Source of the DNA: Shigella phage 75/02 Stx
Length of the DNA stretch: 60,875 nucleotides
Strand: one strand, 5' to 3'
Sequence record: KF766125
This document shows positions 59,886 through 60,760 of this stretch, in pieces. The position numbers were made by a program, and so were the translations under genes. Under the pieces are notes generated by a model. It saw only the letters and a list, made by a program, of their open reading frames with translations, was not told where the DNA came from and did not search any database. Positions within the stretch are counted from its first letter, which is position 1. Every line of letters begins with the position of its first letter.

Positions 59886-60134
59886 GATGACCTCCTTTGG
59901 CTTTTTTCGAGAAATGCCACCACAAAATGTGGTGCCGGGAGGCTCGAAACGGCCCAAAAGATACCGCGGACTTATTCCCCTTGCGGGTGTTGTATTCGTC
60001 GCCCTCCCGACATTGATCGGGGATGTGACCGCACACTGTGCTATCACTGAATAACAGGCATAAAAAATCCAACACTGACGGGGTTGGTTTAATCCGCTTT
60101 TGGGAGGTTTTCGAGGCCTCGGCGCGGAGTATAG

Positions 60135-60422
60135 TCAGTATTGGACGCAGTCGTCAACCATCGCCGTTTCTTTGGCTGTGTCGAGGGTGAGGTGGTAATC
60201 CTTGCGGTTGTGACCGCCTCTACCAGATGTTTGCTTTCCCAAATTGGAAAGCAAAATATAGTCTTGATTTTCAATGAATTCGTATTCTGAAATGCGATTT
60301 GTAATCCATGCCGCAAACACCTTTTTCACGCCTAAAAAAGCATGCAGATCGCGGGCATTGCAGAGTAGGGCTGTTTCGTTGTCGATAGTGCCGTTGAATA
60401 CGGGGATGAGTTGACTGGTCAT
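60135..60422 (-). pseudogene. Duplicated Bro-N 5' fragment (95-aa ORF)
   Basis: MTSQLIPVFNGTIDNETALLCNARDLH... paralogous to the downstream bro N-terminus; same SD; DNA at 60159-60210 near-identical to 59639-59690. Confidence 0.55.
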
Positions 60423-60760
60423 GATGACCTCCTTGTAAGTTTAGTTAGCTCAACCAGTTAGTAGCTGGTTGGTCGGGTGTCAACTGAGCCTTACAAGAAG
60501 CTCTGGGCATATTCCCCTTACGGGTATTGTATTACGCCTCTCCACCCGACCTTTGTACGGATGTGACTATGCCGCATTACGGGCATAAAAAAGCCGCAAA
60601 GCTATCGGGTGCGGATGACCGCTTGTAAGTTCAGTGCGGTCAGTATGCGATAGCTCTGGCGGATTTGTCAAATCGTGCAGTAACATCCTTTTCTTCCTTG
60701 CCATTTCTCAATGATGACAAAGGGTGGATTCGGATTGGTATTGGGACAAAAGTGAGACAC

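Follow-up and report, generated by a model that had tools for sequence, protein, structure and literature searches.

Antirepressor-like genes of Shigella phage 75/02 Stx lie behind probable c4-like RNA switches built around sRNA-Xcc1 family RNAs

What is the role of the long, partly conserved leaders that precede two neighbouring genes of Shigella phage 75/02 Stx? The sequence record of this phage (KF766125), a single stretch of 60,875 nucleotides (nt) referred to here as the window, carries on its minus strand two open reading frames (ORFs) of 95 and 207 amino acids (aa), each with a leader of its own. An initial annotation had described the pair as duplicated leaders of tandem Bro-N antirepressor genes and had proposed that a structured RNA or an operator array controls their expression. 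The answer favoured here, with a probability of roughly 0.7, is that each leader would be a self-contained RNA switch of the type represented by P1 c4, N15 CA and Gifsy-1 IsrK, a reading by analogy, and that an RNA of the sRNA-Xcc1 family lies at its centre. The region is laid out as follows.

60423-60700, minus strand: leader 1, upstream of the 95-aa ORF
60135-60422, minus strand: 95-aa ORF (ORF list; start codon 60420-60422), with an AntA domain only (Pfam, E = 1.8e-24)
59886-60134, minus strand: leader 2, between the 95-aa and 207-aa ORFs
59262-59885, minus strand: 207-aa antirepressor-like gene (ORF list, ATG at 59885), with AntA and P22_AR_C domains (Pfam)

Minus-strand alignment of 59886-60134 with 60423-60700 recovers the shared blocks exactly as they had been listed, with diverged sequence between them, and the Shine-Dalgarno/start stretch AAGGAGGTCATCATGACCA is indeed identical in both leaders. 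The core block AATACAAYACCCGNAAGGGGAAT lies at 59974-59996 and 60511-60533, the block GTCACATCC at 60021-60029 and 60559-60567, and the block TTTTTTATGCC at 60057-60067 and 60582-60592. Similarity by chance is excluded, as both cores score far above the gathering threshold (53 bits) of sRNA-Xcc1 (RF02221), a family first described in Xanthomonas campestris. In a search with all Rfam families, members of sRNA-Xcc1 were found in the two leaders at 59926-60011 (minus strand, 74.5 bits) and at 60463-60551 (minus strand, 71 bits); a search of the whole window added one outside both leaders, at 16931-17014 (plus strand, 79.6 bits). The 23-nt core pattern AATACAANACCNGNAANGGGAAT occurs three times in the window, the third copy being at 16947-16969 on the plus strand, and in none of 100 dinucleotide-preserving shuffles.

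The RNA is about 87 nt long and adopts a three-way junction composed of a closing stem (P1), a P2 hairpin constituting the invariant core and capped by a GNRA loop, and a variable P3 hairpin, followed by a junction of 6-7 nt and a 3' RCC(A/C) tail; the window copies share the three-way junction and the invariant P2 core. In related loci, YTATG is common just before the RNA and RCC(A/C) just after it. This architecture is backed by covariation. With pairs counted on an explicit structure in 72 diverse sequences, and with 500 shuffles and slid structures as controls, 82% of the cells are paired as against 64% in shuffles, and double-sided changes, present in 17 of 20 pairs, number 273 as against 95 in shuffles and 57-110 in slid structures. 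The covariation score is 0.443 (0.155 in shuffles, at most 0.178 in slid controls), none of the 500 shuffles reaches the observed values, and the P1, P2 and P3 helices all covary. RNAalifold, applied to a MAFFT alignment, recovered P2 and P3 and missed P1 because a subgroup with a 3-nt indel is out of register. A short ORF inside the RNA that precedes the 95-aa ORF (ATG after AAGGGGAAT) was considered and rejected, having no counterpart in the other leader, and no promoter-like spacing was found directly before the RNA in the window copies.

These results separate the two halves of the initial proposal. An element acting at the level of DNA, whether the operator array raised at that time or a recombination site placed before antirepressor genes, could find support in the presence of sRNA-Xcc1 copies in integron cassettes (bioRxiv 10.1101/2025.06.18.660453). 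However, the compensatory changes preserve helices, and the many G-U pairs occur on the RNA strand only; this strand specificity argues for an RNA, and both features fit an RNA and not protein-binding DNA. The orientation of the element relative to the downstream gene is moreover constant across loci. The structured RNA thus stands, while the RNA elements explain every conserved block without an operator array, and a DNA-level element is regarded as extremely improbable.

Each RNA is embedded in a module with a common layout: a sigma-70-like promoter, a two-part upstream site (b1-a1), a hairpin with a run of T, the RNA, and a two-part downstream site (b2-a2) abutting the Shine-Dalgarno sequence. 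All three window modules conform to it, and the complementary segments are the P3 loop (a') and the junction (b') of the RNA. Module 1 precedes the 95-aa ORF.

60642-60671, minus strand: promoter-like site, TTGACA (60666-60671), 18 nt, CATACT (60642-60647); 10/12 matches in the scan
60622-60635, minus strand: upstream target, b1 ACTGA (60631-60635) and a1 CTTACAAG (60622-60629), then GCGG
60587-60614, minus strand: leader hairpin, terminator-like as read from the sequence, CCGCA(11-nt loop)TGCGG (60594-60614), C, T6 (60587-60592)
60463-60551, minus strand: RNA, P1 60543-60551 with 60471-60479, P2 core 60511-60533, P3 60486-60503
60490-60497 and 60480-60485, minus strand: pairing segments of the RNA, a' CTTGTAAG and junction b' AGTTGA; 3' tail AACCA
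60428-60446, minus strand: downstream target, weak b2 AACT (60438-60441 or 60443-60446) and a2 CTTACAAG (60432-60439)

Its promoter predicts a transcript start near 60635. The b1-a1 site shows complementarity to both the junction and the P3 loop of its own RNA (RNAduplex, -17.8 kcal/mol), and a2 overlaps the Shine-Dalgarno sequence AGGAGG (60428-60433; duplex -20.3 kcal/mol). Module 2 precedes the 207-aa gene.

60128-60157, minus strand: promoter-like site, TTGACG (60152-60157), 18 nt, TATACT (60128-60133); 10/12 matches in the scan
60097-60115, minus strand: upstream target, b1 CTCGAAA (60109-60115) and a1 CCCAAAAG (60097-60104), then CGG
60062-60087, minus strand: leader hairpin, CCAAC(CCCGTCAGT)GTTGG (60069-60087), A, T6 (60062-60067)
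59926-60011, minus strand: RNA, P1 60003-60011 with 59934-59942, P2 core 59974-59996, P3 59949-59969
59953-59960 and 59943-59949, minus strand: pairing segments of the RNA, a' CTTTTGGG and junction b' TTTCGAG; 3' tail ACCA
59891-59911, minus strand: downstream target, b2 CTCGAAA (59905-59911) and a2 CCAAAG (59895-59900)

In module 2, the promoter overlaps the stop and last codons of the 95-aa ORF. Over 15 nt, b1-a1 is exactly complementary to the junction and loop of its own RNA (-21.5 kcal/mol) and is the best site in the whole window for that RNA; a2 overlaps the Shine-Dalgarno sequence AGGAGG (59891-59896; duplex -18.9 kcal/mol), ahead of the start codon at 59883-59885. The block noted initially as gcataaaaaa-cc is accounted for by the leader hairpin and its T-run, and it is the diverged sequence separating the blocks that carries the information, namely the specificity loops and the matching target sites. 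The third module lies on the plus strand, elsewhere in the window.

16812-17052, plus strand: module 3, same layout (RF02221 match and sequence reading)
16812-16817 and 16835-16840, plus strand: promoter, TTGACA, 17 nt, GATACT
16853-16859 and 16867-16874, plus strand: upstream target, b1 CTCAAAA and a1 GCAAGTAG
16881-16901, plus strand: hairpin, followed by T7
16931-17014, plus strand: RNA, a' 16981-16988, b' 16991-16997
17027-17032 and 17036-17042, plus strand: downstream target, b2 TCAAAA and a2 CAAGTAG, the latter overlapping AGGA
17053-17721, plus strand: 222-aa gene of the nin region, with ORF6N and P22_AR_C domains (ORF list, Pfam)

Exact complementarity in module 3 extends over 17 nt upstream and 13 nt downstream, and its RNA lies 38 nt upstream of the 222-aa gene. 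The C-terminal half of the 222-aa protein resembles that of the 207-aa AntA protein.

Is this pairing a property of the family? A viral set of 120 loci with the core motif was gathered, 98 unique loci being analysed and 89 entering an exact-match test, while a scan of one bacterial genome per species yielded 107 loci, mostly from Pseudomonadota. In almost every viral locus, a' and b' are complementary to both two-part sites. The upstream site lies about 70-130 nt before the RNA in the order b1, short spacer, a1, (G)CGG, and the a2 half of the downstream site abuts or overlaps the Shine-Dalgarno sequence; among the 56 viral loci with a downstream site, a2 ends 7-11 nt ahead of the start codon in 49. 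For the viral loci, the mean RNAduplex energy of an RNA with its own upstream site is -17.6 kcal/mol, as against -13.0 for shuffled and -12.7 for cross-locus pairings (Wilcoxon p = 2e-16); for the downstream site, the values are -15.3, -12.2 and -11.8 kcal/mol (p = 5e-13). An exact two-part match of at least 12 nt is found upstream in 73% of own pairings versus 1.5% of cross-locus ones, and downstream in 63% versus 2.9%. In the bacterial set, the upstream site is present in 90% of the loci and the downstream site in 46%. There are 50 distinct a1 sequences in the viral set and 67 in the genomic set, each matching the loop of its own RNA, and this variety amounts to covariation between the RNA and its flanks.

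The upstream part of the module is equally regular. In 62% of 65 loci, the promoter ends 6-15 nt upstream of b1 (1.2% of random windows), and a hairpin with a run of 5-8 T follows a1 by 22-32 nt in 58 of the 65, with stems that covary. The (G)CGG after a1 is nearly invariant. Another recurring feature is the loop motif of the leader hairpin, (A/C)CCCG(A/T)NAG, which is maintained across loci while the stem covaries (e.g., 60594-60614 and 60069-60087); this suggests a role beyond termination, for instance as a protein site or in a loop-loop contact.

The specificity of pairing also bears on the published view of the family. An independent trans-acting small RNA directed at unlinked host or virulence genes, with the antirepressor neighbour being incidental, would agree with the published target predictions and HrpG/HrpX regulation in Xanthomonas and with vesicle enrichment in Xylella (PMC2996969, PMC12189769). 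A host-directed seed would nonetheless be conserved, whereas the specificity segments differ from locus to locus and match their own flanks; P2, the conserved portion of the RNA, lies outside the pairing segments. In a scan of the whole window, the best sites of each RNA, or ties for best, are its own flanks, and further targets of the three RNAs are limited to background-level matches of 11-13 nt. A host-directed role of this kind is therefore judged improbable. As one phage carries three different a'/b' pairs, control of each gene probably falls mainly to its own RNA.

How would such a module operate? By analogy with c4, the sRNA-Xcc1 RNA would be cut from a read-through transcript; the tRNA-like closing stem, the 5' flank YUAUG and the 3' RCC(A/C) tail suggest processing by RNase P, again by analogy. 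The processed RNA would accumulate, pair with b2-a2 and hide the ribosome binding site, keeping the antirepressor off. For b1-a1, two options may be drawn from known systems: in the manner of P4 and N15, the RNA could bind the nascent transcript and alter termination at its leader hairpin; alternatively, as for IsrK, the gene could be turned on by the short terminated leader transcript soaking up the RNA. A more specific antiterminator, in which the GCGG after a1 would pair with the 5' half of the leader hairpin (CCGC), was rejected as a general device since it fits module 1 only among the minus-strand leaders; pairing of the hairpin loop (CACCCGA) with the 5' strand of P1 was likewise discarded, as it fits module 1 only.

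The same segments could also be read as a 5' untranslated region acting purely in cis, in which a'b' would alternate between pairing with b1-a1, pairing with b2-a2 and forming the sRNA-Xcc1 junction in response to a protein or ligand, with no processed trans-acting RNA. Minimum free energy folds of the whole leaders do pair a'b' in cis, with b1-a1 in module 2 and with b2-a2 in module 1 (z -3.8 and -4.1), the invariant P2 hairpin resembles a site at which a constant factor would bind, and alternative structures in cis have been shown experimentally in the IsrK system (PMC4825925). By comparison, 58 of 65 loci have a hairpin and T-run separating b1-a1 from the RNA, so that many transcripts would stop short of a'b', a point in favour of action in trans; the Xanthomonas RNA is a discrete species of 88 nt by Northern blot and rapid amplification of cDNA ends (PMC2996969); and conservation extends to the tRNA-like closing stem and the RCC tail. 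A purely cis-acting leader is thus considered rather unlikely, though it overlaps the c4-like switch and does not exclude it: as a'b' can pair in cis with either site, cis switching may contribute.

Several observations weigh against the c4-like switch. The proposed mechanism does not account for the invariant P2 hairpin. Module 1 fails the strict exact-match test downstream, because its b2 is only 4 nt long, and its RNA may engage in cross-talk with the upstream site of module 3 (-19.0 kcal/mol, a crude duplex energy). The GCGG/CCGC antiterminator is not conserved, being broken where the stem covaries (e.g., in locus L002) and absent from module 2. The models for C4 (RF01695), c4-2, c4-a1b1 (RF03163) and isrK (RF01394) give no match at E <= 1 in 56000-60875, so that homology with c4 is not established and the likeness is one of design only. 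Finally, a GC-rich viral subgroup (L001, L005 and relatives) has no recognisable b2-a2 or b1-a1, and the Xanthomonadaceae loci have no recognisable b2-a2 at the ribosome site; masking of the ribosome site is thus not universal in the family, whose most conserved core is the promoter, b1-a1, the terminator and the RNA.

The RNAs of the GC-rich subgroup (L001, L005, L024, L025, L053, L073, L093, L120) show no complementarity to their flanks, and a promoter-like TTGACG...TATTCT follows the RNA and precedes an ORF of 83-87 aa without a Pfam match; this subgroup may work differently. In Xanthomonas (L125, 1675-2357, minus strand), an 89-aa ORF and, after it, a SymE-like gene come behind the RNA, with b1-a1 and the terminator present. 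A large family of proteins of about 205-255 aa (MSTFDSDDLETTGYFLPEDSQLRL...), without a Pfam match, is also found 3' of the RNA in Xanthomonadaceae.

Which genes, then, stand behind the RNA? Neither ORF of the pair examined here matches Bro-N (PF02498), the label first given to them; both match Pfam AntA (PF08346). The proteins encoded downstream of the RNA were checked by Pfam at 95 viral and 106 genomic loci, about half of the 106 genomic ones being without a Pfam match.

KilA-N: 19 viral, 2 genomic
AntA: 13 viral; no genomic entry
Bro-N: 13 viral, 31 genomic
Rha: 11 viral, 8 genomic
P22_AR_N: 9 viral, 4 genomic
ORF6N: 9 viral, 3 genomic
SymE: 2 genomic; no viral entry

The idea that the leaders are alike because they were duplicated is not supported, given that the same RNA precedes unrelated N-terminal domains at the third site in the window and at about 200 loci elsewhere. 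As the specificity segments differ and the two AntA proteins are only 63% identical across their shared part, modules 1 and 2 are a diverged pair rather than a recent duplication. The 95-aa ORF is related to 207-aa genes, for example that in L004, from which it differs by truncation. The -35 element of module 2 (TTGACG; 60128-60160) is made of codons of this truncated gene, where the full-length gene reads GTTGAACG, and the truncation point and the module 2 promoter therefore coincide. Phage TL-2011c and many Shiga toxin (Stx) phages have the same arrangement, a 94-95-aa ORF in tandem with a full-length gene; in TL-2011c, it lies in the early-left region upstream of methylase, xis and int.

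The source of the window is a Shiga-toxin-type lambdoid phage: 59200-60875 shares 96% identity with Shigella phage POCJ13 and matches 186 phage records, the majority Stx-converting phages. On the 3' side of the 207-aa ORF come, in order, a DksA/TraR zinc-finger gene, DUF4752 and an Ead/Ea22 gene. The module 1 promoter is preceded, at a distance of about 90-130 nt (60757-60796), by two exact copies of the near-palindromic 14-mer ACAAAGCTTTGCAT, at 60761-60774 and 60781-60794 in plus-strand reading, 20 nt apart; these might serve as paired operators for a repressor or form a hairpin at a transcript end. Elsewhere in the window, Rfam places STnc100 at 22220-22418 (plus strand, 141 bits) and the anti-GcvB small RNA AgvB at 22414-22473 (minus strand, 56.6 bits), both typical of Stx-type prophages. 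Two overlapping small ORFs of 136 and 102 aa at 14350-15058 (minus strand), the second with a helix-turn-helix-like sequence, look like a HigB/HigA-type toxin-antitoxin pair; the ORFs that come after them, at 15155-16723, are unusually AT-rich.

In published work, sRNA-Xcc1 appears as a virulence-linked small RNA of Xanthomonas and Xylella; passing mentions place it ahead of symE in integron cassettes and ahead of an ORF6N gene in APSE phages, and a paper on vesicles of Shiga-toxin-producing Escherichia coli lists it as a genomic prediction only. The literature treats it as a virulence-linked RNA of integron cassettes acting in trans. In a literature coverage that is incomplete, no report was found of the paired target sites, the leader terminator or the link to antirepressor genes seen here, nor of a relation between sRNA-Xcc1 and c4, and Rfam does not place the family in the C4 clan (CL00128). 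The RNA family and the regulatory logic are each known; what seems to have gone unnoticed is that they are connected, and how widely.

A c4-like role would provide a concrete, testable function for a family that Rfam has listed since 2012, with an annotation as virulence-linked and trans-acting, and would, by analogy, account for the silencing of a large group of phage antirepressor-like genes. Stx-type phages would carry three separately addressed RNA switches, which could influence prophage induction, and the many natural specificity variants would offer ready-made orthogonal pairs of RNA repressor and target for synthetic biology. A broader proposal, for and against which the odds are about even, is that sRNA-Xcc1 RNAs form a second class of programmable c4-like immunity RNA, very widespread in Pseudomonadota and their phages. 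Each module would produce two complementary small RNAs, the terminated b1-a1 leader and the processed sRNA-Xcc1 RNA, and would gate SymE toxins and DNA-binding antirepressor-like genes of the Bro-N, KilA-N, Rha, AntA, ORF6N and P22_AR_N types; P2 would recruit a host factor, and the three largely orthogonal modules of one Stx-type phage would form a small anti-immunity network. If true, this would replace the published view of sRNA-Xcc1 as a virulence small RNA.

How close, finally, is the likeness to the known systems? The mechanisms of c4, CI and IsrK/STnc1160 are described in PMC4825925 and PMC12197685. In P4, following the account in PMC4825925, the CI RNA pairs with seqA and seqC and causes termination; it is a processed leader RNA with an internal stretch complementary to sites on both sides, and the outcome in P4 is premature termination giving prophage immunity. 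The small RNA 24B_1 and d_ant of Phi24B were set aside, as they concern a different antirepressor located downstream of the lysis genes. In Gifsy-1, the short terminated leader RNA IsrK pairs with the read-through transcript and turns translation on, read-through of the locus yields a complementary processed RNA together with the antirepressor mRNA, and the processed STnc1160 lies where a c4-like RNA would be (PMC4825925). As in isrK/c4-a1b1, b1-a1 in the window directly follows the promoter and precedes a hairpin of the Rho-independent type with its U-run; this leader layout permits the same two-RNA circuit, and activation by the short RNA may operate here by analogy. By comparison with the IsrK locus and its orf45, no upstream coupling ORF is evident in the window.

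The closest parallel is with c4 of P1/P7, which blocks the ribosome site of the ant operon (PMC12197685), and with the CA RNA of N15. Both have the same order of parts as the window modules, with the antirepressor after b2-a2 at the ribosome site; in N15, the order as read directly is promoter, b1 CTCTCAAC, a1 ACAAGAAG, terminator, TTATGG-C4 RNA-ACC, b2 TTCTCAAC, a2 ATACAAGA, AGGA and ATG. The RNAs also resemble each other: both have a closing stem and two hairpins, the loop of the second hairpin holds a' and the junction holds b', and UAUGG lies on the 5' side and ACC on the 3' side. As is characteristic of C4, a'/b' of the window RNAs is complementary to a1/b1 upstream and to a2/b2 at the ribosome site downstream. 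The N15 antirepressor leader matches C4 (78.8 bits), isrK and c4-a1b1, and was for this reason rejected as a member of sRNA-Xcc1. In contrast with c4, the first hairpin of the window RNA is a larger invariant element, AAUACAAYACCCGNAAGGGGAAU, its closing stem has 9 bp where that of c4 has about 17 bp, and the gene follows directly, with no icd-like first cistron. By analogy, the window modules most likely act like c4 while belonging to sRNA-Xcc1 and not to C4/isrK.

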